Sequence record: MK327928.1 | Length of the DNA stretch: 64,000 nucleotides | Source: Escherichia phage vB_EcoM_G2133 | Strand: one strand, 5' to 3' | Part shown: positions 1 to 46,673 of the stretch, piece by piece | Numbering within the stretch: position 1 is the first letter of the stretch | Layout of the letters: each line of letters opens with the position of its first letter | The notes under the pieces: generated by a model | Told to the model about the DNA's origin: nothing | Database searches by the model: none | The model's input: the letters and a program-made list of their open reading frames with translations, nothing else | Made by a program: the position numbers and the translations under genes

Positions 1-11
1 AATTTTCCTTA

Positions 12-2244
12 TTAGGCCGCAAGGGCCTTCATAGTTTTAGCGATTTGGGAAACTTCATCATCGCTTAAAGAATTACGATAACCGATGAAGTCGGAAACAA
101 TACGGAATTTCTTGGTAAACTCAGCAACCATTTTATCACTATTTTTTGAAGCATTACGTGATAATTCATCAAAGAGATTAGTTACTGTCCAGATATCATG
201 ACCGATGGTATCTTTTCCACCATTGAAATACACACCGCGTAATGAACTAACCATATTACCAAGTCGTGTATATTCTTCAGAAACTTCATCTGTACTGAAG
301 TACTTCATCATAAAATCTAGTTCAGGATACTTGATAATTTTATCAATATATCGTTGAGCTGAACTTGAATAACCTACATACTTATCATAATCTACATCAT
401 CAAAAGCATCTACATATAAATCACGCAAAGCTTCAAAAATACATTGGCACTGACCGAGTTCTTTTACCTTTTTCTGTAAAAGCGGACGAATAACATAAAA
501 TTCATTAATGCCAATAAGATTAGCCATACGAATCAAAATATTCATAGATGGATGACAAAGTGATGTAGTACCATCCAGCCATACGAATCAAAATATTCAT
601 AGATGGATGACAAAGTGATGTAGTACCATCCATAGAGAAAATATCAGAACGATGCATATACGCTACATAACCAGTAATTTCATCTGCTTCTGACGTAAGT
701 GTAAATAGTTCCTCTTTTTCCCAGCGCCCGTCTTTAATTTCAAACTTAAATGCTGTAGCAGCTTTAGGACGAGGAGCTTTACTTTTAACTACCTTTGGAA
801 TATAGCTTTTAACTAAAGCTTCAATTTCTGACAAATAATGAATGTTAACTTCATCACTTTCAAACATCGCTATAATATCAGGAAGCAAATCAATCTGCGA
901 TTCTACTTCTGGATTAATAAACAGAAGGCGTTCGTTGTGATGAATATTCAAAGCGTTATTAAATTCACTATCATCTAACGCACGTGCTAATCCACGGACA
1001 ATATTAACACGATTTTTAATATTATCAATAACAATATTAATTTTTGTTGTATTAATACCAAACAGACGATAGCTTGATGCAACGGCTGAAGTTTCATGAC
1101 TTTGCTTAATGCGTTTCAGTCGAGGGTCAAGATTTACTTCATACACAACTCCTGCATTGCATAACTTACTATCAGGTTCAAACATACTCTGCATCTTTTT
1201 ATATGACAGATTTTTAGTCGTGAATTTGACTGAATTACTAATCATATAATCTCGAGCAGAATACCCCATCTTCATCAATTCACGATATGTGTGACGAGGA
1301 GATGTAGATTCTTTAAATCGTTTTACATCTTCATTAAATGCTTTCTCACTGAGTTCTTTAACACGCTCAATAATATTTTTACGAGTACGATCATCCAGCG
1401 AAAGAGCCTCGCGAGATGGAGCAATATCAAGTGAACCCATTGGAAACTTAATGTAATTCACTTCATTGCGAATGCTTAGCCAGTTACGGTCTCTAATAAC
1501 ACCATCGATAGGATAAACAATACCGCCATAGATAGCATATAATCCACCACGATCAGGCCAGTATCTTTCTGGATTTACACCGTAATAGTCATCAAAATCC
1601 GGAAAATAATCAATTTCGCGGTCAAGACCGTTAATGATAGCCAAATCTTTGAACGGTCGCATGATATAAGAAACTTCATAAGCAAAGTTTCTAAAGTCTT
1701 TTTCTTCAACTGGAACTACGATTTCAATACCAGTTTTATCATCTGGACCCATTTCTTTTACGAATGTAGGTTTAATCTGTGGGCCATCGCCATCCATGTA
1801 AGCTACATAACCACGAATTTCACCTTTATGGTATGAAGTAATACTAAACGTATCAGTATAACTAAACGGAGATTTAGAACCTAAACCAAATCCGCCAATG
1901 AAATCGTTAGATTCAGCCTTAGATGAACTGAAGTATGAATTATACAGACCAGGAGAATTATCATCACCCTGAATATCAAAATCACTCATACCCGGACCAA
2001 AATCTCGGCAAACAAATCGTGGATCTAAACGTCCAGGAACTTGAATGATAAATTTTTCAGGATTTCCATTGAGAGCATGGGCATCAATCATGTTGGTAAT
2101 CAATTCACGGACTACTGCGCGAATTTTGTTTGTATACAAATCAGATGACAGAATTTTAAATACTTTAGGAGATGCTGTGATGCTAAATGCTTTTGATTTA
2201 GAACCATTACCAAGAATTGTTTCTTTTTCAGTGGTGATAATCAT
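12..2244 (-). pseudogene. rIIA: rIIA rapid-lysis gene, frame broken by a 55-bp tandem duplication (574-codon ORF 520..2244 plus stranded 3' part 12..545)
   Basis: N-terminus [20 protein letters not shown]; both ORFs encode MNILIRMA at the junction; removing one 55-bp copy gives a single 725-codon ORF. Confidence 0.85.
522..631. repeat. perfect 55-bp direct tandem duplication (2 copies) inside rIIA
   Basis: 522-576 and 577-631 are identical: agccatacgaatcaaaatattcatagatggatgacaaagtgatgtagtaccatcc. Confidence 0.95.
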
Positions 2245-2254
2245 AATTTCCTCA

Positions 2255-2458
2255 TTAATTCATATTACGCTTAATAACTTCAGCAACTTCTAGTAGTTCA
2301 TCTTTAGTTGCGGTGTCGGATTGAATTTTATCTCTAATATCTTTAAAGCGGTTTTTAAATTCTTCGGCTTCTCCCATATCGAAAAAGCGTTGAATGATTC
2401 TATATTCTCGATGAACTGCTTTATCAAAAAGTTCTAAATTTACTTTATATGATTTCAT
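2255..2458 (-). CDS. hypothetical small protein (rIIA.1-like)
   Basis: 67-aa ORF between early promoter 2484..2513 and rIIA. Confidence 0.5.
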
Positions 2459-2483
2459 TTCAATATCCTCATTTGCCCAATTA

Positions 2484-2513
2484 ATTATACCACATCCTTG
2501 TGGTAAAGTAAAC
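2484..2513 (-). promoter_or_regulatory. T4-type early promoter (GTTTAC, 18-bp spacer, TATAAT)
   Basis: minus strand GTTTAC (2513..2508) and TATAAT (2489..2484) preceded by tgg. Confidence 0.6.
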
Positions 2514-4333
2514 TACTGGCTCATCCATTCTTTACGAAGGTCAGCATTATCTCCCATAAGCATTTCAAAAAGCTCTTTCCAATTCTCAGGAAGTTTAACA
2601 ACATCATATACTGGGTTTTGAATCATCTCACGATATTCAGATTTTTCCAAAGAGCCAAGTCCTTTAATATAACGGATGCTATGTTTAGGTAGAGCATCTT
2701 TGGCACTCTCATATTCAGCGACTGTATAAAACCATTCTTGTTTTTTACCGACCTGAGCGATGATTACAGGAGTTTTGACAAAGCGAATTCGTCCTTGTTC
2801 AAATAGTTCTGGCCAATTACTAAAAAATCCGAGCAGAGAAGGATAAATGCTTCCTAGACCATCATGGTCAGCATCAGTCATAATAGCAATATTGCGATAA
2901 TTCAAGTTTTCAGCTTTTTCACCAAGAACTAGACCAGTGATTGCGCAAATATCAAATAGTTCTTTGTTTTTAAGCATATCAGCATATGACATACCCCAAC
3001 TGTTGAGAACTTTACCACGTAATGGATAACCACCATGAAGTTCTTTATCACGAACATCAATAAGATAGCCGATAGCAGAATCACCCTCAGTCAAGAAAAG
3101 AGTAGTATCAGCATCTTTACCGCAAAGATTCGCTTTAATATGTTTATGAACCTTAGCTTTAGAAGCCTTTTTAGCTGCTTTAGTTTCTGCTGCTTTTTCT
3201 GCCGCCAATTTACGAGCCAAAGCAGCTTCAATAATCGGCATTAGAATTGCTTCATTATTTAGAATAGCGCGTGAAATCTTTTTAGCATCAAGCTGAATAT
3301 GACTACGAATTTCGCCAAATGGAGAAGTCAAACACTCTTTAGTTTGAGAATCAAATCGCATGTTTTTCATATCACGAACAAACATAACGATAATCAAACA
3401 TTCTTTGACACGCGCTTTAGTTACATCAATTTTGAACTTACGTTTGATTTGTGGAATAAGGTCTTCACAAATATCATCCATAACACAATCAATGTGATGG
3501 CCACCATTCTTAGTGTGAATGTTATTCACATAAGTTAATTGACGAAAACCATCCGGTGAACGACCAACCGCAATAGAACAATTTTCTTGCTCTTGGACGA
3601 TAGCATGCTCATCATATTGGCGTGCATATTTCTTAAAATTGCCCTGAACCTTTTTACCATTAAAGGTAAATTGAATATCAGGATAAACAACAGCAAGTGT
3701 CTGGAGACGATCCAGTGTAATGTCAAGATAAACTTGGGACAGCTCATTAGTTTCAAATGACATAAAATCAGGAATGAAAGTAACACGAGTTCCTTTCCAT
3801 TTTCCAGGAATATCTTCCCATGATTTATTTTCCATGCCATTTGAACAACGAACTACAATATTATTTTGACCATCACCAGTTTCACCGACAAACATCACAG
3901 AAAAAATGTTTGTCAAACTAGAACCAACACCGTTCATACCACCAGTGACGCGTTCTTTATCATCACCAAAGTTACCACCTGCTTTTGGAATAGTCCAGGC
4001 AGCAACTGGACCAGGAATTTCTTCACCGGTAGGTGTTTTAACCATCGCCTGTGGAATACCACGACCGTTATCTTCAACTGTTACTTGATTGTTTTTAATA
4101 GTAACATTAATTTTATTTGCGAATTTAAACTTAGTACGAATACCTTCATCTACTGAGTTATCGATAATTTCATCAATAAGCTTAACAAGACCAGGTACAT
4201 ACTGAACACTTTCCCATTTACCAAACAGAAAGCGCTCATGCATTTCATTAGCAGAAGAGCCAATGTACATGCCACTACGCTTTTTGATATGTTCAATATC
4301 GCTCAGAATTTTAATTTCATTCTTAATCATCAC
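2513..4333 (-). CDS. 39: DNA topoisomerase II large subunit gp39 (ATPase plus Toprim), uninterrupted
   Basis: 606-aa ORF; N-terminus MIKNEIKILSDIEHIKKRSGMYIGS; Toprim LTEGDSA; DNGRGIP ATPase motif. Confidence 0.85.
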   Translation of the reverse strand: MMIKNEIKILSDIEHIKKRSGMYIGSSANEMHERFLFGKWESVQYVPGLVKLIDEIIDNSVDEGIRTKFKFANKINVTIKNNQVTVEDNGRGIPQAMVKTPTGEEIPGPVAAWTIPKAGGNFGDDKERVTGGMNGVGSSLTNIFSVMFVGETGDGQNNIVVRCSNGMENKSWEDIPGKWKGTRVTFIPDFMSFETNELSQVYLDITLDRLQTLAVVYPDIQFTFNGKKVQGNFKKYARQYDEHAIVQEQENCSIAVGRSPDGFRQLTYVNNIHTKNGGHHIDCVMDDICEDLIPQIKRKFKIDVTKARVKECLIIVMFVRDMKNMRFDSQTKECLTSPFGEIRSHIQLDAKKISRAILNNEAILMPIIEAALARKLAAEKAAETKAAKKASKAKVHKHIKANLCGKDADTTLFLTEGDSAIGYLIDVRDKELHGGYPLRGKVLNSWGMSYADMLKNKELFDICAITGLVLGEKAENLNYRNIAIMTDADHDGLGSIYPSLLGFFSNWPELFEQGRIRFVKTPVIIAQVGKKQEWFYTVAEYESAKDALPKHSIRYIKGLGSLEKSEYREMIQNPVYDVVKLPENWKELFEMLMGDNADLRKEWMSQ

Positions 4334-4357
4334 TTATCCTCGTTTGGTTTCGGGAAT

Positions 4358-4382
4358 ATTATACTCCAATATTCATAAAGCT
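4358..4382 (-). promoter_or_regulatory. MotA-dependent middle promoter for gene 39 (aGCTTTA box, 12-bp spacer, TATAAT)
   Basis: minus strand aGCTTTA-tgaatattggag-TATAAT, about 25 nt upstream of the gp39 ATG with GAGGA ribosome-binding site. Confidence 0.5.
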
Positions 4383-4400
4383 AAAGGCCCGAAGGCCTTT
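4383..4400 (-). terminator. stem-loop with UUCG tetraloop (aaaggcc-uucg-ggccuuu)
   Basis: 7-bp stem and 4-nt loop at the 3' end of ORF 4400..4669. Confidence 0.5.
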
Positions 4401-4669
4401 TATTTAAAACGGATAGTCGAATCCTTAAAGAACAGCCCAGAACATACTGTTCCTTCTACTTTCTGCCCGGTAGGTCCAATAGCACGAAATCCAGTATGTT
4501 GGAAATCATTTTCAGAGCAACCGAACCAGTTATATCCAGTGATTTCAATATTAGTAAAACCGCTTGAAGATAAAACTTTGGTTGCATTATCAGCATCAGT
4601 ACATCCTACTAAAGATACTGCTAATACTAATGCTGCGATAGAACGATTAATATATTTCATAATTTTCAC
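4400..4669 (-). CDS. predicted lipoprotein
   Basis: 89 aa; signal peptide with lipobox LVGC. Confidence 0.5.
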   Translation of the reverse strand: MKIMKYINRSIAALVLAVSLVGCTDADNATKVLSSSGFTNIEITGYNWFGCSENDFQHTGFRAIGPTGQKVEGTVCSGLFFKDSTIRFK

Positions 4670-5037
4670 TTAAATTTAATGGCTTGAAGAAGACTAATAA
4701 CTCTCAAGCGACTTCTTTCATCTTTAACTGTAAAGGAAAGAGGGTCACCAGATTTCATAGTGATAGTACATGCAAAATCAAAATCTTCTGTGATTTCTTC
4801 GAAGAAGTCAAATTCTTCATCATAAATTAGAACACTACTTTGCAGACTGTGAAGAGTTTTTCCAGCATTTCCAGATGCTGTACCAATCATTGTAACATTA
4901 TGACCTTTCATATCTTCAACGATAAATTCACTAGTCAATATTACAGCATTAATAGAACTATTCCTATTACTAGCAGAAAGTAGAAATTTCTGTTCTTCAC
5001 CTTCGCGAATACGATATTTCTTACCCATTTTAAACAT
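4666..5037 (-). CDS. hypothetical protein
   Basis: 123-aa ORF in the operon, stop abuts next start. Confidence 0.45.
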   Translation of the reverse strand: MFKMGKKYRIREGEEQKFLLSASNRNSSINAVILTSEFIVEDMKGHNVTMIGTASGNAGKTLHSLQSSVLIYDEEFDFFEEITEDFDFACTITMKSGDPLSFTVKDERSRLRVISLLQAIKFK

Positions 5038-5039
5038 AA

Positions 5040-5216
5040 TTATCCCTTAAGTAAGTCGTAAAATCCGCCATTCACATGCTTAGGAGCAGAAGGCCGACGA
5101 GTAGACAAACGATGACATTTAGGGCAAACATCATTTTCTCGTTCAGAAATCTTTTTAATTTTTTCATATTCATGCCCACAATCTTCGGATTGGCATTTAT
5201 AATCATACATTGGCAT
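5040..5216 (-). CDS. small zinc-ribbon protein (FmdB-like CxxC...CxxC), 58 aa, not in ORF track
   Basis: translation MPMYDYKCQSEDCGHEYEKIKKISERENDVCPKCHRLSTRRPSAPKHVNGGFYDLLKG; stop overlaps next ATG. Confidence 0.5.
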   Translation of the reverse strand: MPMYDYKCQSEDCGHEYEKIKKISERENDVCPKCHRLSTRRPSAPKHVNGGFYDLLKG

Positions 5217-5218
5217 AA

Positions 5219-5644
5219 TTATTCCTTAAAGTGTGCTTTCAGCATCTGATACAAAGACCATGCCTGTTCATTATTTTCAATAGTAACTTTCATGACCGGG
5301 AATTCTGTGAAATCTTCTATTTGTTCTTGCTCTTTCTCTTCCTGCTCTTGCTCTCCAGATGCCTGATATGGATTTTCCACTTCATCAAAGAACCCAGCTT
5401 CGTTAGTAGAAAGCCAGATAAAGTTTTCGTCAAGGATATCACCATGTGTTGCGTATCCAACCATGCCAGTAGATGTCACAATTTTAGTAGGACGCCCAAG
5501 ATAATCAGCATCTAAAATTTTAAAAGGTTCCATACCTAAACGCCGTGCGTAGATTCCGTTATCAGTATGGTCTTTAATAAAATTTTCTTGAGCTTGTTTA
5601 TTTTTAAATTGATACCATTTATTAACTTCAAATTTAATAGCCAT
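5219..5644 (-). CDS. hypothetical protein (goF-like by size and position)
   Basis: 141-aa ORF, acidic [11 protein letters not shown] stretch. Confidence 0.4.
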
Positions 5645-5859
5645 TAATAAATTTCCTTCCAGTAAGTTGTGCCATCTTCAGTAATTTCACGAAATACACC
5701 GTAAATTGGCTGTTTATCACCGACTTTCTCATACACATAAACCGAAGTCAAGTGAGTAAACTTAACAGTATGTTCCTTTTTAACCACTACCAAATCTGGA
5801 TCAAATAATACATCTTCAAATTCGTCATTAGTGCAATTCTGAACAATTTTACGTTTCAT
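5644..5859 (-). CDS. hypothetical protein (cef-like by size and position)
   Basis: 71-aa ORF. Confidence 0.4.
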
Positions 5860-5872
5860 TACAATTTCCTCA

Positions 5873-6142
5873 TTAATTAAACAGTGGAGCGATACGTTTC
5901 AGAAGAGTAGCAGCACCTTTAGCGAATTTTACATCATGAAAAACAGTTTCTTCTTCTGTAACAACTCGAACTTTAATATTTTCACAATCCCAATTTTTAC
6001 GAACAATCTTCAAAAGCTGCAGTAAATCTTTACATTCAGCAATATCGATAACACATCCACGAGAATCTTCCATTATCGCACGATAACCGTAAGCCATACC
6101 ATAATCGTTGAAAGATTGCTCGATGATAATTAAGTTTTCCAT
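5873..6142 (-). CDS. hypothetical protein (likely start at ATG 6142; track start 6154 is TTG)
   Basis: GGAG 8 nt upstream of ATG; leader shared with ORF 51169..52137. Confidence 0.45.
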   Translation of the reverse strand: MENLIIIEQSFNDYGMAYGYRAIMEDSRGCVIDIAECKDLLQLLKIVRKNWDCENIKVRVVTEEETVFHDVKFAKGAATLLKRIAPLFN

Positions 6143-6166
6143 TTTATTCTCCAAGTTGTTTTCTGT

Positions 6167-6209
6167 ATCAGTAGTTGATATTGATATAGTACCATAATCA
6201 ACTACTGAT
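6167..6209. repeat. perfect 13-bp inverted repeat (atcagtagttgat / atcaactactgat) around a promoter -10-like box
   Basis: arms 6167-6179 and 6197-6209, 17-bp spacer containing tatagtacc. Confidence 0.8.
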
Positions 6210-6239
6210 GTATATAGTTTTATGAAAAAATTTTAAACT

Positions 6240-6728
6240 TTATGCATAGAGAGCATTGCTATAGTGTTTAATCCAACTTTCAGGAATGACTTTGTATGTT
6301 CCTAAAAATACCACGTTGTACAACTTAACGCCATCTTCTACCCATTGATCGGTAATGTATGCACACATAGCGCGAGTATAAACAGCCTTTCCATCATCTT
6401 TGATAAATTTAAATTCGCAAGGAGCAACGAACTTAATAGCTTGACCGAGTTTCCACTTAAAGTCTACACCTACATGCGAAGTATCAATCGTTTCAATTCC
6501 TTTAGCAGGAACAGCTTTCAAAAACGCAGACTCAAGAAATTTCGCACGAACATAGCCAAACTGAGGTTTAGACTTTCCATCTTTAGGAATGATACGCACT
6601 TTTACTTCAGAATCTTCATCTTTAACACCGTGTTTAAGCTGAATGCTTACAATTTCGACCAATTTTCCTGCTGCTTTAGAACGGGATTTATCAGATACAC
6701 GAGCTAATTCACCAATATTAATAATCAT
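6240..6728 (-). CDS. motB: MotB-like protein
   Basis: 162-aa ORF at the T4 motB position; C-terminus paralogous to ORF 6805..7338. Confidence 0.55.
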   Translation of the reverse strand: MIINIGELARVSDKSRSKAAGKLVEIVSIQLKHGVKDEDSEVKVRIIPKDGKSKPQFGYVRAKFLESAFLKAVPAKGIETIDTSHVGVDFKWKLGQAIKFVAPCEFKFIKDDGKAVYTRAMCAYITDQWVEDGVKLYNVVFLGTYKVIPESWIKHYSNALYA

Positions 6729-6772
6729 AGTTATCTCTCACTTGTTAAAAAGATTTTATACTCCGCGGGACC

Positions 6773-6802
6773 ATTATACTCTGGTCCCAAGAGTTTGTAA
6801 AC
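6773..6802 (-). promoter_or_regulatory. T4-type early promoter
   Basis: GTTTAC (6802..6797), 18-bp spacer, TATAAT (6778..6773). Confidence 0.6.
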
Positions 6803-6804
6803 TA

Positions 6805-7338
6805 TTAATTTAAAATAGCTACCACCGCACTACGAGGTACTACGCTAAAATCACCTGCATGAACAACATTCAGAAGTTCAACGCCATCTTCAATCCATTG
6901 GTCTGTTACCCAACCACAGACCGAAATAAATGGAGTCTTGATAGCTACCGCACGAGTCAGAAGGTCAGTAGGATCGCATTCTTGGAAGAGGATGAATTCA
7001 TCTTCATAAACCAGATTTTTCTCTATTTTGTTATTATCTAAACGACGACCGTGGACAATATAAGATTTAGTAAACCATTTACTTTTTTCAAAGTCTTCAA
7101 CAATAAATTCGCCTTCGCCAAAAACATCAGTCAGAATTTTATGGCCGGAAATCAAGGCATTAGTTTTAATTTTAGGTTCAACTAGTTTGTAGGTTTTGCC
7201 GATTTCAATAGCGGTAGTCATAATAGGTTCCTTAATTTCCAGTGGTTTAACAGGGCATACATAAGTACTTACAACATCAAAATCAACCAGTTTAGCTGCA
7301 GGATTTGGTGTGTATTCAGGATTATAATTAAATTTCAT
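6805..7338 (-). CDS. hypothetical protein, MotB paralog
   Basis: 177 aa; C-terminal TDQWIEDGVELLNVV matches motB TDQWVEDGVKLYNVV. Confidence 0.5.
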   Translation of the reverse strand: MKFNYNPEYTPNPAAKLVDFDVVSTYVCPVKPLEIKEPIMTTAIEIGKTYKLVEPKIKTNALISGHKILTDVFGEGEFIVEDFEKSKWFTKSYIVHGRRLDNNKIEKNLVYEDEFILFQECDPTDLLTRAVAIKTPFISVCGWVTDQWIEDGVELLNVVHAGDFSVVPRSAVVAILN

Positions 7339-7340
7339 AA

Positions 7341-7841
7341 TTATCTCATTTCAATAAAATCTACAAGTTCAGCATGGGATTTACGGAACATTACTTGATG
7401 CCCACCAATGATAACTTCATCTTCAGGAACTTCATATATAGCGAGATAAAATCCTTTAGAAGCTAATTCTTCACGCTCTTCTCGTGTGAACCATCTCATC
7501 ATATCATATTCGCTAGCAAAAGCAAAATGATAAAGAGCTATAAACCATCCTGGAATATGATATTCTACTCCAACATAATCTTTCTTGAACTTAGTATTAA
7601 TTACTATATTAGCGTTTTTAACTAATAGTTTATCTTCGTGCGGTAAAGGAATTCTTTTATTATTATCGCTATGATGCATAAAATTAGGTCTGTCATAACC
7701 TACGTGTAATAGCCACTCTTCGCTCCATGAATCTATTATACTCCTGTACGGCGTTATTTGAACACAAAGATTTCGACGTATTGTTATAGCATCTTCATAA
7801 TCAAGAATACTAAACGATGATTCAACACGATAAATTTTCAT
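7341..7841 (-). CDS. hypothetical protein
   Basis: 166-aa ORF. Confidence 0.45.
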   Translation of the reverse strand: MKIYRVESSFSILDYEDAITIRRNLCVQITPYRSIIDSWSEEWLLHVGYDRPNFMHHSDNNKRIPLPHEDKLLVKNANIVINTKFKKDYVGVEYHIPGWFIALYHFAFASEYDMMRWFTREEREELASKGFYLAIYEVPEDEVIIGGHQVMFRKSHAELVDFIEMR

Positions 7842-7869
7842 TTTTATTATCCTCAGTAGCTATGGTGTT

Positions 7870-7899
7870 ATAATACCATAACTAACCGAGGAAGTAAAC
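7870..7899 (-). promoter_or_regulatory. T4-type early promoter (-10 TATTAT)
   Basis: GTTTAC (7899..7894), 18-bp spacer, tggTATTAT. Confidence 0.45.
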
Positions 7900-7905
7900 A
7901 ACTTT

Positions 7906-8589
7906 TTATCGTTTAGTTGGAAGAGACAGAGGATCGCAATCTTCCTCTGACGGAGCATCTTCAAGACCCATAGCGTATCGCAAAGCATACTTCATCATCA
8001 GGATGTCTTTCGCACAGTCATGAATAGAATCATGCGCAACGAATCCATCTAAAGTTCCTTTTGGAAGAGGACACGTGGTCATATCACGAACAAGCAGAAG
8101 TGCTTCAATTCTGGTACGAATATCACGCTGATTCCAGAATTTACATGGTTCTAACTTAAATGTGTCAAGTTCATTCTCAGAAACACCATTAAGACGTTGA
8201 ATATCACGAATTAGATCGACTAAAATTGGAAAATCAAACGACATTCCACGGCACCAGCCTTGAGATTTCCAAGGATCGATATTATGCGCATTGATGTAAT
8301 CATTAAATTTTACAATACCATCGATAGTGCTTACATCTTCATCTGATGGTGCAATATTTTTTCGAGCTTCAGGAGACTGATTTTTCCACCATTCGATAGT
8401 GCTTTTAGTAAAAAGACGATGTCCTTTTTGGCTTTTTAAATCAAATTTGATTTTAATGCCACGTGAAACTAGTTCATCGAATGTTTCAACCACTTCTGGA
8501 TTAGGGTCAAAAGCAATTACAGCTAAATCAATAACCGCTGCTTTTTCACCGCTTCCCATTGTTTCAAAATCTATAATAAAATCAAACAT
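7906..8589 (-). CDS. dexA: exonuclease A (DEDDh 3'-5' exonuclease)
   Basis: 227 aa; N-terminal FDFIIDFETMG exonuclease motif. Confidence 0.7.
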   Translation of the reverse strand: MFDFIIDFETMGSGEKAAVIDLAVIAFDPNPEVVETFDELVSRGIKIKFDLKSQKGHRLFTKSTIEWWKNQSPEARKNIAPSDEDVSTIDGIVKFNDYINAHNIDPWKSQGWCRGMSFDFPILVDLIRDIQRLNGVSENELDTFKLEPCKFWNQRDIRTRIEALLLVRDMTTCPLPKGTLDGFVAHDSIHDCAKDILMMKYALRYAMGLEDAPSEEDCDPLSLPTKR

Positions 8590-22409: not shown

Positions 22410-23252
22410 TTAATCAACTGCTATTGGATGAATAGCATTAAACTTATGAAATGCTTCTGATTTTTCTTTACGCGAAACACACATGCGAAGAACCTTTAAT
22501 GGCTCGTCTTCTTCACCCAACGATTTTCGTTTTTCAATATTTGATGTTTTCCAACGAGCTTGCTCTGGAAACTCTCTATTGATTTGCTCAAGCGCTCTAT
22601 TATGTTTAGAATTACTACGAATTGAACTACACCCACCGGGAGCGTGTGATTTTCCAGATACAACTAGATATTTGAACAAGGCCAAATGCGGATAACCTTG
22701 ATTAATTAAATTGAGAAATGCATACATATCTTCGCATAAATCAATTTTTCCATACCCAATTTGTTCTGTCGTAAGTTTTCCGAGGTCATACCATGTATTC
22801 GTGAATCCATATGAGTTTTCACGATAATTACCCCAAGATGAAGTAATTTTAAAAATTGGTAGACGAGCATGACCGTGATAATACCCGCAATCCATGGCAT
22901 CTTCAACGTATTGAATCAATTCATAGAACTGTTCACGAGTTAATTGATTAATTTTATCTACACGCCGTTTATCGTCTCTCTTTCGTATTGAACTCATACG
23001 AATAGTAGTATCATCATCAATCATCCAGATTCGTTGACCTGCATACATATCAGTAATTGCTTTACGAGTACCGGCAATTCCATTAACATCATCAGGAATA
23101 GTTATAATTTTAGCTCTAGACCCATAAGCATCATAATAAGCTTTTTCTTCGTGTTCACGCACTACAATATGGGGTTCATAATCAGTCGGAAACATATTAA
23201 GGGCAGAAACTGCCCCTGCACGTTGATAGCTCGGAATTACGAATTGAATCAT
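22410..23252 (-). CDS. GT-A fold glycosyltransferase at the beta-gt locus (possibly beta-glucosyl-HMC-alpha-glucosyltransferase)
   Basis: 280 aa; DxD motif in IWMIDDDTTI; much shorter than the 351-aa T4 beta-gt. Confidence 0.45.
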   Translation of the reverse strand: MIQFVIPSYQRAGAVSALNMFPTDYEPHIVVREHEEKAYYDAYGSRAKIITIPDDVNGIAGTRKAITDMYAGQRIWMIDDDTTIRMSSIRKRDDKRRVDKINQLTREQFYELIQYVEDAMDCGYYHGHARLPIFKITSSWGNYRENSYGFTNTWYDLGKLTTEQIGYGKIDLCEDMYAFLNLINQGYPHLALFKYLVVSGKSHAPGGCSSIRSNSKHNRALEQINREFPEQARWKTSNIEKRKSLGEEDEPLKVLRMCVSRKEKSEAFHKFNAIHPIAVD

Positions 23253-23890
23253 TTAAGTGCCTTGCATTTGTCAAAATGGTATCTTGTCATATTTGGCCCA
23301 CGTCCTTTTAGTCCGCAATGCGGACATATTTTTTCTATCAAATTATGAGGTTTTCCTTTACGATTTTTAGACATCGTTTCTTTAATTATTTTAGCTTTTT
23401 CTGCGCCAAAAATTTCTTCATAAGTTTTACCAGAATTTTCCTTTGCTCGATTTATAATTCCATATGCCTGCTCATTTTTACCATACATTGGATTACCTTC
23501 GCCTTTCATTCTTTTAGAATGATCAGGACGCTTGATTCCACGAAAGGCATTTCCGCACTTATATCTTTCTTCTGGAGATAGTTTTTTACCGTACATTCCA
23601 TTTAATTTGCCTGGAAAACTTCCTCCCCATGCTTCATTCTTTAAATTATATGAATCCGGACAATTAGCAGCATCTAAACAAGTTAAAATAATTTCTTCAA
23701 CCTGTCTAAACATTGGTCCTTCATATAATATTTCTTTATTAAAGGATTTTATTCCATATTTCTTTTTAGCATGTTGCCAAACTACACCCGAACCATCATA
23801 ATTCGGGTTGTGACCATCATGACTTCCTATATACCACTTTTTAGTTTTAGGATGTTTATACTTATAAACATGTGGCACATTTACTTCCAT
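23249..23890 (-). CDS. GIY-YIG homing endonuclease (Seg-like)
   Basis: 213 aa; HVYKYKH...KWYIGS motif; C-terminal zinc finger CPHCG. Confidence 0.6.
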   Translation of the reverse strand: MEVNVPHVYKYKHPKTKKWYIGSHDGHNPNYDGSGVVWQHAKKKYGIKSFNKEILYEGPMFRQVEEIILTCLDAANCPDSYNLKNEAWGGSFPGKLNGMYGKKLSPEERYKCGNAFRGIKRPDHSKRMKGEGNPMYGKNEQAYGIINRAKENSGKTYEEIFGAEKAKIIKETMSKNRKGKPHNLIEKICPHCGLKGRGPNMTRYHFDKCKALK

Positions 23891-33399: not shown

Positions 33400-34261
33400 T
33401 CACAATGAAGAAAATTCTTTAACTAAAGCCTGTAATGAAGCCTCTATTGGATATCCATTCTTAACTAACATTTTCCTAAACATCACATGTTTAGGACGAT
33501 TATATGATATCCACAATTCATACAATTTATCTTTATTATCCCAATGATAACCTTTTCGTCGAGATGCTATATGAGCTTTTCTAATCTCCGGATTTTTCCA
33601 ACTAGCAGCTACTGAATTTGATATAGCTATTTTATATTCAGGTTTTGATAAAGCAGCACGAACAGCCTTTTGGTGTTTAATTTTATTTTCTTCGTTATTA
33701 AACCATTCCCTTGAAGCCATTGAAATTTTTTGTTTTGTTTTAAAATTATTTAATCTTTCTTTGTTATCTTTCCTATTTTTTGCTACTGAAAAATATTTTA
33801 ATGCCCTTTCTCTAGCAGCATTTCTATTTTGCGGATTTGAATAATACTGTTGAAGCCTTTTTGATATTGTGTCACTTACATCTTGTTTTATAAAACTATA
33901 CTCAGCAGCTATTAAATCAACTTCGGCTAAAGATAAATTTTTATATGTTTTTCCTGACATCATTCTATTTAAAGCATTTAGCATTTAGCATTTTTCCATT
34001 TTTACCTTTTGCTAATAAGAAATGTGCTTTAAAATGATTAAAATGACTTAAATTAACTAAATTCCATGTAGATTTTAAATATTCAGGAAATATTGATTTA
34101 GGAAGCACGTGGTGTGCTTCCGTTTTACCTGGAGTTTTAACAGTTGAATTCATAGAAATAAAATTAATGTAAGACTTGGCGTCTTCTTCACTCAACGCTA
34201 ATTTTTCAACTAATTCCTTTATTAAAAATTCATCATTAATGTCAAGTTTAAAATTCTTCAC
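33400..34261 (-). pseudogene. HNH homing endonuclease (Mob-like) split into two ORFs by an extra copy of a 7-bp repeat
   Basis: ORF 33965..34261 carries HNH motif EAHHVLPKS...NLVNLS...HFKAHF; ORF 33400..33984 matches the C-terminal half of the intact HNH ORF 53868..54647. Confidence 0.65.
33973..33993. repeat. heptamer agcattt x3 (minus strand aaatgct) at the HNH frameshift point
   Basis: three exact tandem copies; two copies would give a continuous reading frame. Confidence 0.9.
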
Positions 34262-35902: not shown

Positions 35903-37103
35903 ATTTTGTAATAATGTCAAACTGTTCTTTAAAGCAGAAGCTTGAATCTTGATGTTGATACAAAAATTCATACGCTTTTTCACGTTCGCGGTCATAAAGA
36001 GCTCGGTCAGATGACAGTTCTTTAATACGCTCAAACGTTGATTCCATATCATTTTCATCAAACCAAATGATACCGCTATCATGCGAGGTCAAAGGAGTAT
36101 TATCAACACGGAATTTTAAATTTTCGCCAGTAGATTTCCAAAATACCGGAATTGTTCCACATGCACCAAGCTCGAGATGAGTATATTCTAAAGAACGCTG
36201 TAGATATTTTTTATCCAACTTACTCAGCTGATAACCAAATCCGGATTTACTCATGCGTTCAAGCATTTCGCTATTTACATAACGGTCAAGAATTTGCGTT
36301 GGCAAATTAGGAGCAATTTTAATTTGGTCTACTTGATGAAGACGATAATACTCGTATGGAATTCCTTTTTCTTTAATAGGAATGAACGCTGGAGAACGTT
36401 CCAGACCTTCCATAATAGTACTTAGTCCTGCAGGTTTAAGATGTTTTTCATGAAAATCAAACATCTGATAAAAACCTTTCCATGTAGTCGTACGACCAAT
36501 CCAACGGTTGATATTCATGTTAATTTCAGAAACATCTTTCCAGTAGGTTGATCGAACCTTCGCAATATCCATAGGAGGCTGAAAGTTATATACTGTCGGC
36601 GCTTCTTCAATATCATCAAACAGAGAAACTGTTTCCGGATACCATTCTTTCATCAGAACTTTATTAAAATCGCCATTATCAGAATGGCTAAAAATAACAT
36701 CAGCTCGACGAACAGTTTCTTCTAATCCCAAATTTCGACGCAAAGAAAGAGAAGAATGGTCATGCTGATAAACTACAACACGAACAGAAGGTTTAATGTT
36801 ATCAATAATTTTTTTATAGTTATTAATAGTGTCTTCTTCAACCGAAGTAGCAGGAACTGAATTGATAATTAGAATATCACAATCATTTACCAGCTTAAGT
36901 GTTTTATCGTATTCTTTTGCCAATAAAACCGGAATTGAAAATGATTTATAATCATGCGCGCAATTACGAGTAAATGATTTATCTTTAGCATAAACCAAAG
37001 TCACTTCATGACCATTTTTAATAAACCAATCACGTTGCTCGAGTGAGAATTTAGTTACACCACAACCTTCAAGACCTCGAGCCATAAAAATACATACTTT
37101 CAT
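35901..37103 (-). CDS. agt: DNA alpha-glucosyltransferase
   Basis: 400-aa ORF, MKVCIFMARGLEGCGVTKFSLEQRDWF. Confidence 0.75.
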   Translation of the reverse strand: MKVCIFMARGLEGCGVTKFSLEQRDWFIKNGHEVTLVYAKDKSFTRNCAHDYKSFSIPVLLAKEYDKTLKLVNDCDILIINSVPATSVEEDTINNYKKIIDNIKPSVRVVVYQHDHSSLSLRRNLGLEETVRRADVIFSHSDNGDFNKVLMKEWYPETVSLFDDIEEAPTVYNFQPPMDIAKVRSTYWKDVSEINMNINRWIGRTTTWKGFYQMFDFHEKHLKPAGLSTIMEGLERSPAFIPIKEKGIPYEYYRLHQVDQIKIAPNLPTQILDRYVNSEMLERMSKSGFGYQLSKLDKKYLQRSLEYTHLELGACGTIPVFWKSTGENLKFRVDNTPLTSHDSGIIWFDENDMESTFERIKELSSDRALYDREREKAYEFLYQHQDSSFCFKEQFDIITK

Positions 37104-41030: not shown

Positions 41031-41145
41031 ATTTTACCCTTAATTGATTAACCAAGCATTGATAAGCACTAAACTATACTGTGAATAAAATTCTGGACCA
41101 AAATGAAAAATCATATCATTTATAGTATCCATAATATAATTCAAT

Positions 41146-41616
41146 TTAATCATGTTTCCACACCCCATCGGTATTTGACCAAAGCCGCTGATTATCTGAT
41201 CCTCGCCACAGCTTTTTAGTCGGAAGATTTTTCTCATACTTCCCATCAATAATAACATCAACATATTTAAGCATTTCTAGTTGTTTAATATCTTCAAACT
41301 TATATCCTGTCCACAACCAAATGCTTTTATTGGGATAAAGATTTTTTACTGTTTGAACAATACAATGAATAACATCTCGATTGTCAGGATAGAGAGGGTC
41401 TCCTCCAGTTATAGTCAATCCTTCTATATAATCATTATTCAAACATTCAATTAATTGTTCTAGTGTTTCACCAGTGAATGGAATACCATTTCTAGCATTC
41501 CATGTTGATTTATTATAACACCCTTCACATTTATGCAAACAACCTGTAACGAAAAGAACGACCCTGCAACCAGGGCCATTCACAAAATCGCAAGGATAAA
41601 ATCTATCATAATTCAT
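41146..41616 (-). CDS. nrdG: anaerobic ribonucleotide reductase activating protein NrdG (radical SAM)
   Basis: 156 aa; CLHKCEGCYN cluster motif. Confidence 0.8.
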   Translation of the reverse strand: MNYDRFYPCDFVNGPGCRVVLFVTGCLHKCEGCYNKSTWNARNGIPFTGETLEQLIECLNNDYIEGLTITGGDPLYPDNRDVIHCIVQTVKNLYPNKSIWLWTGYKFEDIKQLEMLKYVDVIIDGKYEKNLPTKKLWRGSDNQRLWSNTDGVWKHD

Positions 41617-43430
41617 TGGTGTTTAACCCTATGCATGATTTCTTTATTTTTGCCGAGATTAAATCCGCGTTCGTTCGGATTTCCCAAATAACCACATGTT
41701 CTTCTTATGGTATTCATCTTTTTAGGATCAGTTTCTCCACAAATAGAACAAACAAATCCGTTTTCAGTAGGAGTCATTTCATGGGTACTTCCACATGTAA
41801 AACATTTATCTACCGGCATGTTAACACCAAAATAATCTAAATGTTGTGCAGCATAATCCCATACAGCCTCAAGACCTTTTAGATTATTTTTCATATCAGG
41901 AAGTTCAACATAAGAAATGTGACCACCTGTCGCAATGAAATGATATGGCGCTTCACGAGAAATCTTTTCAAACGGAGTAATATTTTCTTCTACTGAAACA
42001 TGGAAACTGTTAGTGTACCAGCCTTTATCAGTAACATCTTTTACACTTCCATATTTTTCTGTATCGAGTTTACAGAAGCGATAACAAAGGTTTTCAGCAG
42101 GAGTAGAATATAAACTAAAAGCAAATCCGGTTCTTTCAGTCCACTGTTTAAGATGGGCATTCATTTTAGTTAAAATTTCCTGTCCAATATCACGACCGAC
42201 AAGAATATTCAATTCGTGAATACCAATGTATCCTAGGGACACTGAACTTCTACCGTTTTTAAATAACTCAATTATGTCGTCATCAGGTTTAAGACGAACC
42301 CCGAATGCACCTTCTTGGTAAAGAATAGGAGCAACAGTAGCTTTAACTCCTTTTAAGGAACTAATTCTACACATCAAAGCTTCAAAACATAAATCCATTC
42401 GTTCATTGAATAATTCAACAAATTTCTGTTCATTGAACTGTGTTCCAATATAAGAATCTAACGCTATGCGAGGAAGATTCAATGTTACAACACCAAGATT
42501 ATTACGTCCATCAAGAATTTCATTACCAGTCGAATCTTTCCATACGCTCAAGAAACTACGGCAACCCATTGGAGAAACAGGAACAGATGAACCAGTGATA
42601 GCTTTATTGTTCTTAGCTGAAATAATATCAGGATACATTCTTTTGCTTGCGCACTCTAAAGCAAGCTGTTTAATATCATAGTTCGGATCGTCTTTATAAA
42701 GATTAACACCTTCTTCAACGAACATAACAAGCTTAGGAAAAATAGGAGTTATCCCATCACGACCGAGACCTTTAATACGATTTTTCAGAATTGCTTTCTG
42801 AATCATTCGTTCAGTCCAGTCAGTTCCCGTACCAAATGTAATTGTTACAAAAGGTGTTTGTCCGTTTGAACTAAAGAGAGTATTTACTTCATATTCATAA
42901 GCTTGGAATGCATCGTATACGTCTTTTTCTGTTTTAGATTGAGCATAATTCAGTGCATCGGCGATTTGCCATTTTTCTGCATCCTCAATATGTTTTGCAT
43001 AGGTACGTTTAACATAAGGAGAAAGTACTTTATCTACATTCGCAAAAGTCGTTCCGCCGTACTGGTGTGAAGCAACCTGTGCAGTAATTTGTGCCATAAT
43101 TGCAGTAGCAACACCGATTAATTTAGGAGTTTCAATCTGCGCATTACCAAGCTTAAATCCGTTCTCAAGCATTCCTTTTAAATCTACTAAACAACAATTA
43201 GTAAATGGAAGAGCAGGGGAATAATCAATATCATGGAAATGGATAATTCCGCTTTCATGCGCTTTCATAATAAAAGACGGGACCATATTTTTGGCAATGT
43301 GTTTAGACACAATACCAGCCATAAGGTCCCGTTGAGTTGGAAAAACACGAGAATCTTTATTAGCATTCTCGTTTAAAAGGTCTTTATTAGTTTTATGAAT
43401 CAATCCTTCAATTTCTTTTTCAATTGTCAT
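41613..43430 (-). CDS. nrdD: anaerobic ribonucleotide reductase NrdD, uninterrupted
   Basis: 605 aa; C-terminal glycyl radical motif RRTCGYLG; zinc ribbon CFTCGS...CSICG. Confidence 0.85.
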   Translation of the reverse strand: MTIEKEIEGLIHKTNKDLLNENANKDSRVFPTQRDLMAGIVSKHIAKNMVPSFIMKAHESGIIHFHDIDYSPALPFTNCCLVDLKGMLENGFKLGNAQIETPKLIGVATAIMAQITAQVASHQYGGTTFANVDKVLSPYVKRTYAKHIEDAEKWQIADALNYAQSKTEKDVYDAFQAYEYEVNTLFSSNGQTPFVTITFGTGTDWTERMIQKAILKNRIKGLGRDGITPIFPKLVMFVEEGVNLYKDDPNYDIKQLALECASKRMYPDIISAKNNKAITGSSVPVSPMGCRSFLSVWKDSTGNEILDGRNNLGVVTLNLPRIALDSYIGTQFNEQKFVELFNERMDLCFEALMCRISSLKGVKATVAPILYQEGAFGVRLKPDDDIIELFKNGRSSVSLGYIGIHELNILVGRDIGQEILTKMNAHLKQWTERTGFAFSLYSTPAENLCYRFCKLDTEKYGSVKDVTDKGWYTNSFHVSVEENITPFEKISREAPYHFIATGGHISYVELPDMKNNLKGLEAVWDYAAQHLDYFGVNMPVDKCFTCGSTHEMTPTENGFVCSICGETDPKKMNTIRRTCGYLGNPNERGFNLGKNKEIMHRVKHQ

Positions 43431-43900
43431 TTTAAACTCTTTCTAAGCTGCTTCTTAAATGAAGCTATTAACTGTGTTTTGGTGTCAGATTCATTATATT
43501 CAAATCCTCTTTGAAGCATCTCAGCCATCATTTCCTCTTTTCCTAAACGAGAAAATTCCTTTGATTTATCTCCAACAAAGTTAGGGTGAATATTATTTTG
43601 GGTGTAATCGGATTTTAAATAAGTAAGTAAATTTTCTAACCATTCAAGATAATCAACACCTTGTCCCTTTAAGCCAGAACGATTAAATTTATGCTTCATT
43701 TGACCTTCTGCGGCATTGCAGAGATTACAAAGCAATCCACGTACCTTTCCTGCTTTTGGTCCATTTAATTCATGGTCATGGTCGAGGTGATTAGCTTGAA
43801 CATCAGGATTTAGTTCTCGTTGGCAAATTAAGCATTTACCGTTTTGTGCATCATAAAATTTCTGTTTTTCTTCTTTGTATAATTTGCCAGTCAATAACAT
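43427..43900 (-). CDS. 49: endonuclease VII (Holliday junction resolvase) gp49
   Basis: 157 aa; CLICQ...HLDHDHELNG...CNLCN. Confidence 0.8.
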   Translation of the reverse strand: MLLTGKLYKEEKQKFYDAQNGKCLICQRELNPDVQANHLDHDHELNGPKAGKVRGLLCNLCNAAEGQMKHKFNRSGLKGQGVDYLEWLENLLTYLKSDYTQNNIHPNFVGDKSKEFSRLGKEEMMAEMLQRGFEYNESDTKTQLIASFKKQLRKSLK

Positions 43901-43941
43901 AATAAACCCTTACCTTAAATAGATAAGGGTATTTATTATTT

Positions 43942-44427
43942 TCAAGTATTGTAAAACATTTGATTCAATCGCTTATATTGCCGAATCTTTTGGTCAGAAA
44001 AAGAAATTTGGGTTTCAAGCCATTCAATATATTCTGCCGCAGCTTGCATCAAATTTCCTTCATAGCCATCGTTATTTTCTTGTGCAGCTAATTTAGCTAA
44101 TGCGTATGAAATACGTTCACCTTGAAAATCAGCTTTAGGCTTCTGAACAACTTGATTAGTTCTCTCTACAACTTCTTCAATTTCGCCATTTTCTACTGAT
44201 TCAGTATTCCACAAGCACCAATACGTAATTGGCTTATCGTAGATGTTAATAATCTTTCCATCAGAAAGTTCAATTTCAATAATTCCAGTATCAGGCTCTA
44301 TATCATCTTCACATTCTTTTGCAAGTTCACGAACTTTAAAGACAGTACCTGCACTAAGTTCCGGCCAGTAATTACACAGTCCTGTATCAGCACGATTAAT
44401 TCTAAACCACTTATCTACTGTAATCAT
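43942..44427 (-). CDS. pin: protease inhibitor Pin-like (start ATG 44427)
   Basis: 161 aa from MITVDKWF; track start 44445 is TTG inside the promoter leader. Confidence 0.55.
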   Translation of the reverse strand: MITVDKWFRINRADTGLCNYWPELSAGTVFKVRELAKECEDDIEPDTGIIEIELSDGKIINIYDKPITYWCLWNTESVENGEIEEVVERTNQVVQKPKADFQGERISYALAKLAAQENNDGYEGNLMQAAAEYIEWLETQISFSDQKIRQYKRLNQMFYNT

Positions 44428-44760: not shown

Positions 44761-44939
44761 TTAGAAATAGACTTTTCGCCATTAGAATAATAAACTTCGA
44801 GTTTAGCACGGTTATTTTTAATTTGAATAATCTTTGCTGTCATCAAAGTTCCATACCCATAATAAACTGCAACTTCATCACCTACATATACCGCGCTTCC
44901 GCGGTAATCATGGATATAGTCAGTTCCTTCGAGCATCAT
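44724..44939 (-). CDS. hypothetical small protein
   Basis: 71-aa ORF. Confidence 0.4.
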   Translation of the reverse strand: MMLEGTDYIHDYRGSAVYVGDEVAVYYGYGTLMTAKIIQIKNNRAKLEVYYSNGEKSISKWKYGDCMVKLG

Positions 44940-45199
44940 TTAAAGTATTCCCGCAATTGGTCAAATCCACCAATATGACTTCCATCAGGAGCAAATACCT
45001 GAGGCATTGTCAATCCAATTTGAGTATCACGACCTAGTTTAGTCAGAAGCTCAGCGATTTTCTCATCATCAAAAACACTTTTTTCCGGCATAATGTTGAT
45101 AAATTCAAACGTCTGTTTCTTCACGGTCAAAAGACGTTTTGCATTATCACAATACACACATTTGTGGATGTTGCTATCATAACCATATACTTTAAACAT
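44936..45199 (-). CDS. nrdC: thioredoxin/glutaredoxin NrdC
   Basis: 87 aa; MFKVYGYDSNIHKCVYCDNAKRLL with CVYC active site. Confidence 0.8.
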   Translation of the reverse strand: MFKVYGYDSNIHKCVYCDNAKRLLTVKKQTFEFINIMPEKSVFDDEKIAELLTKLGRDTQIGLTMPQVFAPDGSHIGGFDQLREYFK

Positions 45200-45200
45200 A

Positions 45201-45443
45201 TTATTCCTTAATTCCTAGTACTTGTTTAAAAGTCTCGTCGTAATCAAGACTTTGGCCCGTTTGTTCTTTATGTTTGTATATAATATCACTTACTTCTGAT
45301 AGCATATTTTTATATGAACGAGTTAAAGCTGATTTAAGCACGCTGTATCTATCAGGAAATTTACCATGTTCATTATAATAAGCTATTGCTAATTCACGGA
45401 CTGCCTTTTCAGCAGTCTCCATATATTCTTTACGCTTTGTCAT
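45201..45443 (-). CDS. hypothetical protein (start ATG 45443)
   Basis: 80 aa from [13 protein letters not shown]. Confidence 0.4.
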
Positions 45444-45744
45444 TTTCTTCTCGGTCAAATCGGTGTTTACAATGGCGACATTTATAACGAAGATTACTAG
45501 TCTGCCAATGGACCAATTGCACCTGTTCAGTTCCACATTCAGGGCAATTAGGAACGTTTTTAGAAGCACGTTCGCGGCGTTCAACCATGACCATTACAGA
45601 ATCCCAATTAATAGGGCTGCTATAATCATCACAACCATGAATCTTTCCACGCATTTCCAAATCGTCTTCTTCACCGGCCATAATAATTTTAATTAAACTG
45701 GAATTACTTGAAGCTGCAATGTCTTCTAATAGACGCTTTTTCAT
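45430..45744 (-). CDS. zinc-ribbon protein
   Basis: 104 aa; CPECG...CRHCKH. Confidence 0.45.
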
Positions 45745-46673
45745 TTCAATATCTCAATAGCATTACGTAAACCATTTGCTTTTGCATTAAGAGCTTTTAA
45801 CAATTTGGTGTGTTCTGCAATTTGGGCTTCAACTTCAATCAAACGAGCATTGAGATATTCGCGTTCTTCACTCAGATTATCAGCCTTTTCTGCTTTAGGT
45901 TCTTTTACAACTTGCTTATATGTATTAGGGTTCTTCAGTTTAATTAGAATGCGTGAACTGTACAGCATTGAACCATTATCTTCGGTTTCGTCATACATTT
46001 CCACTACGTCCATCATCTCCACCATCGTGCAGAGTTTATAAGACAACGAACGAATAATTTTGTTGTGCTTATTAATTTCTCTAGCTGTCATGGTGCCGAG
46101 ATTACGTGAGTAATAATAAGGAACCTGGATATTAATTAATACTGATGAACCACCTGGCTTGTGTGTTACTTCATCAGCAATAACCCAATCCTTAACATGA
46201 ACTGTATTTGTACGGTCATCTCCCGCGGTAAATAGTTTACGAGCATGCTTAAAAAGCATATTCACTTGGTCATTGAATTGACAAGCGAATTTATCAGCAA
46301 ATTTAGTTTCGGGAATGGTAGATAACCAATCAGCCAAATGGGTCTTTTTAACATCGTTAACAATAGTAAATTCAACCAAATCGGTTATAGATGTCTCAGA
46401 TTTAATGAAGCTCGGCTTCATAAAGTTTTTAATGTTATCACTAGCTACAGTAGAAGATAACAGACGAGAACGTTTAAACCATTGAAGCAAATTGCCTAAC
46501 GAATGAGAATAAGCGTTTTGAGTATCTTTACAGATATGATTTTCCTGGCCAACATATTGAAGGAAATCACGAAGAATATTATTATTGATTACTGCCCTGT
46601 GTCCTATCTGATAATTACGATGTTTAGTAATAAGACTGTCAAAATAATCAATATAATGTTTACGAGTTTTCAT
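45741..46673 (-). CDS. coiled-coil C-terminus protein, paralog 1 of 4
   Basis: 310 aa; shared FRxxLKxIL/ASxL motif and C-terminal heptad-repeat helix. Confidence 0.5.
   Translation of the reverse strand: MKTRKHYIDYFDSLITKHRNYQIGHRAVINNNILRDFLQYVGQENHICKDTQNAYSHSLGNLLQWFKRSRLLSSTVASDNIKNFMKPSFIKSETSITDLVEFTIVNDVKKTHLADWLSTIPETKFADKFACQFNDQVNMLFKHARKLFTAGDDRTNTVHVKDWVIADEVTHKPGGSSVLINIQVPYYYSRNLGTMTAREINKHNKIIRSLSYKLCTMVEMMDVVEMYDETEDNGSMLYSSRILIKLKNPNTYKQVVKEPKAEKADNLSEEREYLNARLIEVEAQIAEHTKLLKALNAKANGLRNAIEILK

Follow-up and report, generated by a model that had tools for sequence, protein, structure and literature searches.

Split and unsplit forms of the gene for the large subunit of the type II topoisomerase are both known among the relatives of phage T4. 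In T4 and a minority of its relatives a mobile element has inserted into the TOPRIM coding region, giving rise to genes 39 and 60. The element comprises the HNH homing endonuclease gene mobA, a short extension for each half of the protein and a 50-nt bypass gap, together replacing 64 nt. The unsplit gene has been described as the parental, MobA-free allele; MobA insertion removes a 64-nt region of this gene and brings its own diverged copy, and in the T4 clade the element brings along another 9 nt of homologous sequence, located past the gap (bioRxiv 10.1101/2022.08.31.505936). According to Bonocora et al. (2011), as summarized in that preprint (bioRxiv 10.1101/2022.08.31.505936), the MobA element is transferred into T2 in mixed infections. 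The insert-free state of gene 39 is also discussed in a review of T4 mobile elements (PMC2988022), and for the two-subunit enzyme of T6 there are cryo-EM structures and measured activity (PMC11461880). T2 and T6 carry the unsplit gene, and RB14, RB32 and RB51 annotate theirs as "60plus39".

Here we compare these systems with the same locus in Escherichia phage vB_EcoM_G2133. The DNA that was analysed, which we call the window, is a 64-kb stretch that makes up the left end of this Tequatrovirus (T4-like) genome; it runs in register with T4 coordinate 1. Megablast searches with window positions 1-8000, 1-25000 and 25001-50000 matched hundreds of T4-like genomes, and found no record that is at least 99% identical over a long stretch. 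The best full-length matches, to Tequatrovirus isolates such as VEc74, S2_01, ECML-134 and RB14, are only about 96-97% identical. Since no long match reaches 99%, the phage is a separate isolate, and T4, T2 and T6 themselves are excluded.

The window opens in rIIA, which begins at position 12 and holds a perfect 55-bp tandem duplication (522-576 is repeated as 577-631). Through the frameshift that it causes, rIIA is broken into ORFs 520..2244 and 12..545; deletion of one copy restores a RIIA of 725 aa with 13 differences from T4. Fifty-five is a default k-mer size of assemblers, so an untrimmed overlap from contig circularisation is a likely cause. The alternative is a genuine rII mutant.

Gene 39 of the window ("60plus39") is an uninterrupted gene for the topoisomerase II large subunit, of 605 aa and a stop codon, at positions 2513..4330 on the minus strand; the ORF listing, Pfam and the lengths of homologues agree on this. 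The ORF as listed runs over 2513..4333, which is 606 aa when counted from a GTG, and its translation opens V-M-IKNEIK. In the preliminary description it was taken as a single ORF of 606 codons, a reading that is right about continuity and one codon too long. A Shine-Dalgarno sequence, GAGGA (read from the sequence at 4337..4341, minus strand), precedes the ATG at 4330-4328 by 6 nt, whereas the GTG at 4333 is only 3 nt away from GAGGA, within the spacer. As a start codon the GTG was ruled out for this spacing, and because all homologues begin at the ATG. The genes of RB14, T2 and T6 are annotated as 1818 nt and 605 aa, and residues 1-605 of the T6 structure chain (PDB 8ylu chain C) align with residues 1-605 of the window protein at 1375 bits. 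Taken together, the spacing of the ATG, the homologue lengths and the T6 alignment set the gene at 2513..4330 and 605 aa, with the ATG at 4330 as its likely start. The chance of 606 open codons arising at random is about 3e-22 at 34.3% GC, where each codon has a stop probability of 0.079.

The protein has the domain order of a type IIA topoisomerase ATPase/TOPRIM subunit, and all features that define this class occur in one chain: the GHKL region, the transducer with its QTK loop, and the TOPRIM glutamate and DxD motifs. On the minus strand, the HATPase_c match covers aa 48-150 (3881..4189; Pfam 2.1e-9, 38.3 bits where the cut-off is 26.4) and includes the GHKL boxes EIIDNSVDE (N-box, 54-62), DNGRGIP (G1, 87-93) and GGMNGVGSS (G2, 130-138). 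It is followed on that strand by a GyrB-type transducer (DNA_gyraseB, aa 251-385, 3176..3580; Pfam 1.7e-12), with a QTK loop placed by motif position at aa 329-331. Two TOPRIM motifs were identified by comparison with T4, both likewise on the minus strand: the glutamate motif EGDSA (aa 415-419, 3074..3088), which in T4 lies within gp39, and the acidic motif DADHDG (aa 486-491, 2858..2875), which in T4 lies within gp60 and ends at the GGA take-off codon. The TOPRIM-associated C-terminal domain, TOPRIM_C, completes the chain (aa 520-605, 2516..2773, minus strand; Pfam 4.4e-7). That the ATPase and Toprim regions stand together in one ORF, as had been claimed from the sequence, is therefore borne out by the Pfam domains and by every motif.

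Beyond the phages, the same architecture of GHKL ATPase, transducer and TOPRIM is found in bacterial GyrB/ParE and in the N-terminal half of eukaryotic topoisomerase II. Human Topo II alpha and beta (about 1e-58 to 3e-59) and ParE of S. pneumoniae (9.5e-47) match the window protein over nearly its full length, and all are distant in sequence. The phage enzyme relaxes DNA without supercoiling it (PMC11461880). Its partner subunit, gp52, is encoded outside the window, as gene 52 is not annotated within the first 68 kb of T4.

The comparison with T4 shows where the split gene departs from the unsplit one. By blastp, residues 1-473 of the window protein correspond to residues 1-473 of T4 gp39 at 98%, and residues 472-605 to residues 27-160 of T4 gp60 at 96%. 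The 43 extra C-terminal residues of T4 gp39 and the 26 extra N-terminal residues of T4 gp60 have no blastp counterpart in the window ORF. At the nucleotide level, blastn gives two blocks, one joining window 577-2848 to T4 522-2793 and the other joining window 2913-4662 to T4 3911-5661. The 64 coding nt between these two blocks (window 2849..2912, minus strand; by codon comparison they begin at the third base of A473 and end with S494) stand in place of 1117 nt of T4 (2794-3910), which are annotated there as the tail of gene 39, the mobA remnant, 60.1, the gene 60 leader and the 50-nt bypass region. This is the insert-free MobA target region, and its length is the size of the region that MobA is published to delete (bioRxiv 10.1101/2022.08.31.505936). 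Both phages have rIIA, rIIA.1 and 39.1 as flanking genes.

Split into codons, the window sequence is GAT GCT GAC CAT GAT GGT CTA GGA AGC ATT, contiguous and in frame, where T4 has GAC GCA GAT CAC GAT GGA, the 50-nt gap, and then TTA GGT TCT ATT. G491 (GGT) is thus followed directly by L492 (CTA), and there is no stop after the glycine codon. With a GGT codon and no gap, bypassing is not needed in this gene. The many synonymous differences between the two phages fall only within the part that is element sequence in T4. A T4-type gene 60 bypass cassette, with its 50-nt gap, GGA take-off codon and stop, GGA landing codon and split ORF, was not found in the window. Searched by tblastn, T4 60.1 has zero matches in the window, and the 37-aa mobA fragment matches only weakly, to the window's mobD and not at the gene 39 locus. 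The gene therefore shows both of the features by which we tested for an insert-free ("parental") Topo2L gene: the element's extensions, mobA and 60.1 are lacking, and the 64-nt target region is intact.

The insert-free relatives differ from the window by point substitutions only. In T6, T2, RB14, RB32 and RB51 the gp39 ("gp60plus39") gene has the same position, between rIIA.1 and 39.1, and the same domain order. In T2, T6 and RB14 it encodes 605 aa, like the window, with 96.3-97.6% nucleotide identity and 3-5 amino-acid differences. T313I and R333C are found in the window protein and in none of T4, T2, T6 and RB14. Within the target, the 64-nt region differs from T2 at 2 nt. One codon there is CGC (R479) in the window and CAT (H479) in T2, and this H479R change is shared at the nucleotide level with RB51 and RB68. 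An R479 allele unique to this phage was considered and rejected, as the 86-nt site region is identical in 24 records, RB51 and RB68 among them.

A similar picture is found at nrdD, the gene for the large subunit of the anaerobic ribonucleotide reductase. In T4 this gene carries a 1035-nt insert, consisting of a group I intron with I-TevII, and mobC lies nearby; both are absent from the window. The preliminary description had nrdD at 41613..43430 as one ORF of 605 codons, and we can confirm this: the gene (minus strand) is a single, intron-free ORF of 605 aa with Pfam matches to NRDD (1.4e-170) and Gly_radical, and it is colinear with the two T4 exons, which aa 1-179 and 181-605 match at 98.9% and 99.8%. 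The site of the I-TevII intron, empty here, lies near 42893-42894, the T4 insert falling between window 42892 and 42895. Rfam found no group I intron anywhere in the 64-kb window, while the T4 positive control was recognized as Intron_gpI (RF00028, 105 bits), and at the gathering thresholds no RNA feature that might hide an intron or a recoding signal was found in the whole window. Neighbouring nrdG (41146..41616, minus strand; ORF listing and comparison with T4 and T6) overlaps the end of nrdD by 4 nt, which leaves room for neither the mobC of T4 nor the different, seg-type endonuclease gene that T6 has between nrdG and nrdD. T2 is like the window and most of Tequatrovirus: its nrdD is intron-less, colinear over 605 aa and 97.5% identical in nucleotides, and its nrdG abuts nrdD.

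The uninterrupted forms of both genes are common. In the phage collection, a query of window 2200-4700 found the contiguous gene 39 layout in 521 records, at 80% cover or more in one place, while the T4 MobA/bypass cassette (query T4 2794-3910) was found in 43, many of which are T4 stocks. The contiguous nrdG-nrdD-49 layout (query window 41100-43950, same cover) was found in 723 records and the T4 nrdD intron (query T4 44815-45849) in 27. The unsplit gene 39 is already published and is the usual state among T4 relatives; together with the "60plus39" annotations and the literature, the counts for this gene make our result the correct reading of a known and ordinary state.

Other loci of the window vary in a more mixed fashion. 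T4 has segA and beta-gt between uvsX and gene 42; at this place the window has a gene for a 280-aa beta-glucosyl-HMC-alpha-glucosyltransferase (22410..23252, minus strand; PHROG 842 at 2e-87, Pfam TAGT at 1.8e-10). It is 95.1% identical to T2 and 94.4% to T6, and has no match in T4, so that the short transferase that had been noticed at the beta-gt locus is indeed present, as in T2 and T6. The alpha-glucosyltransferase gene alpha-gt was located at 35904..37103 (minus strand) by tblastn with the T4 protein (91.5% over 400 aa), and is 97.3% identical to T2 in nucleotides. The T4 beta-gt query had no tblastn match in the window. This set of genes, alpha-gt and beta-alpha-gt with no beta-gt, is the one found for HMC glucosylation of the T2/T6 type, which the phage would be predicted to perform.

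The homing endonuclease genes follow another pattern. mobD, which is absent from T2 and T6, is present in the window and 99.7% identical in nucleotides to the T4 copy, between flanks of 96.4% and 91.2%; an identity this high inside such flanks shows that homing-endonuclease DNA has been exchanged with T4-type phages. Copies of segF, mobB, mobC and I-TevII were not found by tblastn at their T4 positions in the window. The T4 mobB and mobC proteins match the window's mobD only, and distantly, and segF and I-TevII have no match at all. A seg-type endonuclease gene at 23249..23890, adjoining beta-alpha-gt and gene 42, is in none of T4, T2 and T6. It was considered as a possible new gene and rejected, as at least 80% of the query is matched in 77 records, with 100% identity in vB_EcoM-G28. 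Like the stretches of T2 and T6 that were examined, the window has no denV, and the dam gene that is present in T2 is absent from it.

Whole-window alignments to the three reference phages were made by blastn. T4 covers 89.8% of the window at 95.4% identity over the covered part, T2 92.1% at 95.9% and T6 91.1% at 95.2%. The slightly lower coverage by T4 is mostly due to inserts of its own, namely the mobA cassette, segF, dam, segA with beta-gt, mobB, mobC, the nrdD intron and denV. Over the 64-kb window, nucleotide identity to T2 or T6 is not clearly higher than to T4, and among 8-kb bins the closest of the three changes repeatedly. The shared coding parts of gene 39 are marginally nearest to T4 (98.2%/97.0%, against 97.9%/95.9% for T2 and 97.6%/96.8% for T6), and nrdG is 98.9% identical to T2. 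The window is, by its sequence, the usual T-even mosaic.

We are confident that gene 39 of this phage is an ordinary insert-free ("parental") T-even allele, in a phage that never acquired the mobA element, the I-TevII intron or mobC. The gene forms an ordinary single cistron whose ribosome binding site is good, and one mRNA is translated conventionally from the ATG at 4330 into a 605-aa GyrB/ParE-like protein with GHKL ATPase, transducer and TOPRIM regions. Judging from the T6, T2 and T4 homologues, this protein would pair with gp52 to form a heterotetrameric, ATP-dependent, DNA-relaxing type IIA topoisomerase for phage replication. The 64-nt target is still in place, and nrdD and the nrdG-nrdD junction likewise never received the intron and mobC, respectively. 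It might be objected that a real insert was collapsed or skipped by the assembler, leaving an ORF that only appears continuous, and the exact 55-bp duplication in rIIA does mean that the window already contains one likely artefact. Yet a unique insert of 1.1 kb normally survives assembly, the junction keeps the reading frame and recurs unchanged over 86 nt in 24 independent records, and hundreds of independent genomes share the layout; we give an assembly error next to no chance. The gene might also have been split by the MobA element at one time and re-created when the element was precisely excised. Re-fused genes of this kind are known in a clade of Aeromonas phages (bioRxiv 10.1101/2022.08.31.505936), and the mobD identity of 99.7%, against 96.4% and 91.2% in the flanks, speaks of endonuclease traffic with T4-type phages. 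The re-fused Aeromonas genes retain sequences related to the extensions, however, and the window ORF holds none. Its length is exactly the 605 aa of T2, T6 and RB14, and its 86-nt site is identical to RB51 and RB68, 2 nt from T2 and separated by many synonymous differences from the copy in the T4 element. Such a history is most improbable in our view. Neither do we put much weight on the idea that the CGC/R479 allele, or some other feature, makes the site a poor substrate for MobA and so acts as a natural resistance allele that keeps the phage free of mobA, which we consider very unlikely.

A question of a different kind is what the ordinary insert-free allele says about kinship. From the unsplit gene 39, the intron-less nrdD and the short transferase, the preliminary description had placed the phage closer to T2 and T6 than to T4, as if these were shared derived markers of a T2/T6 lineage. 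At all three loci the phage does agree with T2 and T6, it lacks denV like the stretches of these phages that were examined, coverage is slightly greater for T2 (92.1%) and T6 (91.1%) than for T4 (89.8%), and nrdG and alpha-gt are 98.9% and 97.3% identical to T2. Furthermore, T4 has its separate gene 60, bypass, mobA and nrdD intron at all the corresponding positions, and the window has none of them; the outcome named beforehand as refuting the claim, a best match to T4 itself with gene 60, mobA and the intron in place, did not occur. That said, lacking the mobile inserts is the majority and ancestral state (521 against 43 records for gene 39, 723 against 27 for nrdD), and therefore carries no signal for grouping. 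Identity to the three phages is about equal, the proposed alignment against them has no clear winner when run over the 64 kb, as the best reference differs from bin to bin, and gene 39 is marginally nearer to T4. mobD is common to the window and T4 only, among the three references, the dam gene of T2 is missing, T4, T2 and T6 all lack the seg-type gene of 23249..23890, and the best database matches are other isolates. The matching loci thus stand as observed, and the closer kinship is doubtful: we consider a T2/T6 lineage marked by these loci unlikely. What sets the phage apart from T4 goes back to homing endonuclease elements that have spread patchily, with no special kinship to T2 and T6.

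For annotation the consequence is direct. The correct entry at this locus is one topoisomerase II large subunit of 605 aa, from the ATG at 4330 and with no recoding event, and nrdD should be entered as one uninterrupted gene. Beyond annotation the finding has little significance, as this is an ordinary state. The intact 64-nt region may be a potential homing site for MobA, given its near-identity to the same region in T2, which is a recipient. With textbook empty sites for both the MobA/bypass element and the I-TevII intron, the phage is predicted to act as a recipient in homing crosses. The window also illustrates that homing-endonuclease inserts are a poor guide to the relatedness of T-even phages, since it mixes states that are T4-like (mobD), T2/T6-like (beta-alpha-gt and the lack of denV) and other (the seg-type gene by gene 42).

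The rIIA gene (12..2244, minus strand) contains a perfect 55-bp tandem duplication at 522-631, in which positions 522-576 of the window sequence are repeated exactly at 577-631. The duplication shifts the reading frame, resulting in two ORFs, 520..2244 (574 aa) and 12..545 (177 aa). When one copy is deleted a 725-aa RIIA is regained, with 13 differences from that of T4. The T4, T2, T6 and RB14 phages each carry one copy of this segment, in contrast to the two found here, and the database matches listed all align in at least two pieces. Either the phage carries a true rII mutation, or an overlap between contig ends was left untrimmed on rotation of the genome to the coordinates of T4. The latter is a candidate source because assemblers commonly use a k-mer of 55. 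In gene 39, the topoisomerase II large subunit, we found two substitutions, R333C (3332-3334, minus strand) and T313I (3392-3394, minus strand), that are found in none of T4, T2, T6 and RB14. The former lies two residues past the QTK loop of the transducer domain; both may be sequencing errors.

Upstream of gene 39, just past the 39.1 stop, there is a GGCCTTCGGGCC hairpin (4363-4399, minus strand) whose loop is UUCG and which runs into T residues. A TATAAT-containing stretch comes after it. Judging from sequence, these look like a candidate terminator/promoter pair ahead of gene 39.

Gene content was also compared with the reference phages. No homologues of T4 dam and T4 denV were identified by tblastn in the whole 64-kb window, the places concerned being about 15.5-16.5 kb and 62.9-63.0 kb. 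T2, unlike the window, has dam at the corresponding place, while neither T2 nor T6 has denV in the stretches examined, as is the case here. A 161-aa ORF (52263-52748, minus strand) matches an ‘RNA polymerase ADP-ribosylase’ PHROG (phrog_832, 6e-24); this stretch gives a blastn match in T2, and none in T4 or T6.

Several differences involve homing endonucleases. A seg-type gene of 213 aa (23249-23890, minus strand; PHROG 314, 1.8e-31, with a weak NUMOD3 match) sits between beta-alpha-gt, a glucosyltransferase gene, and gene 42, where T4, T2 and T6 have none. It was found in 77 records at a cover of at least 80%; among other isolates, the vB_EcoM-G28 copy is 100% identical. Downstream of gene 46, a broken HNH homologue (33400-34153, minus strand; PHROG 655) consists of two overlapping ORFs of 62 and 194 aa. 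T2 likewise has two pieces, whereas T6 has a single ORF of about 285 aa and T4 has nothing at this locus. This is probably a decaying endonuclease gene.

The nrdG gene (41146-41616, minus strand) is 98.9% identical to that of T2, yet just 78.6% (nucleotides) and 80.8% (amino acids) identical to that of T4. On these identities the divergent copy is T4's, which adjoins the homing endonuclease gene mobC, and its divergence is consistent with sequence replacement around the endonuclease insertion. The HNH endonuclease gene mobD (53868-54647, minus strand), present in T4 and absent from T2 and T6, is 99.7% (nucleotides) and 99.6% (amino acids) identical to T4 mobD, while its flanks are less similar, at 96.4% and 91.2%. 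This pattern looks like the recent horizontal spread of an endonuclease gene.
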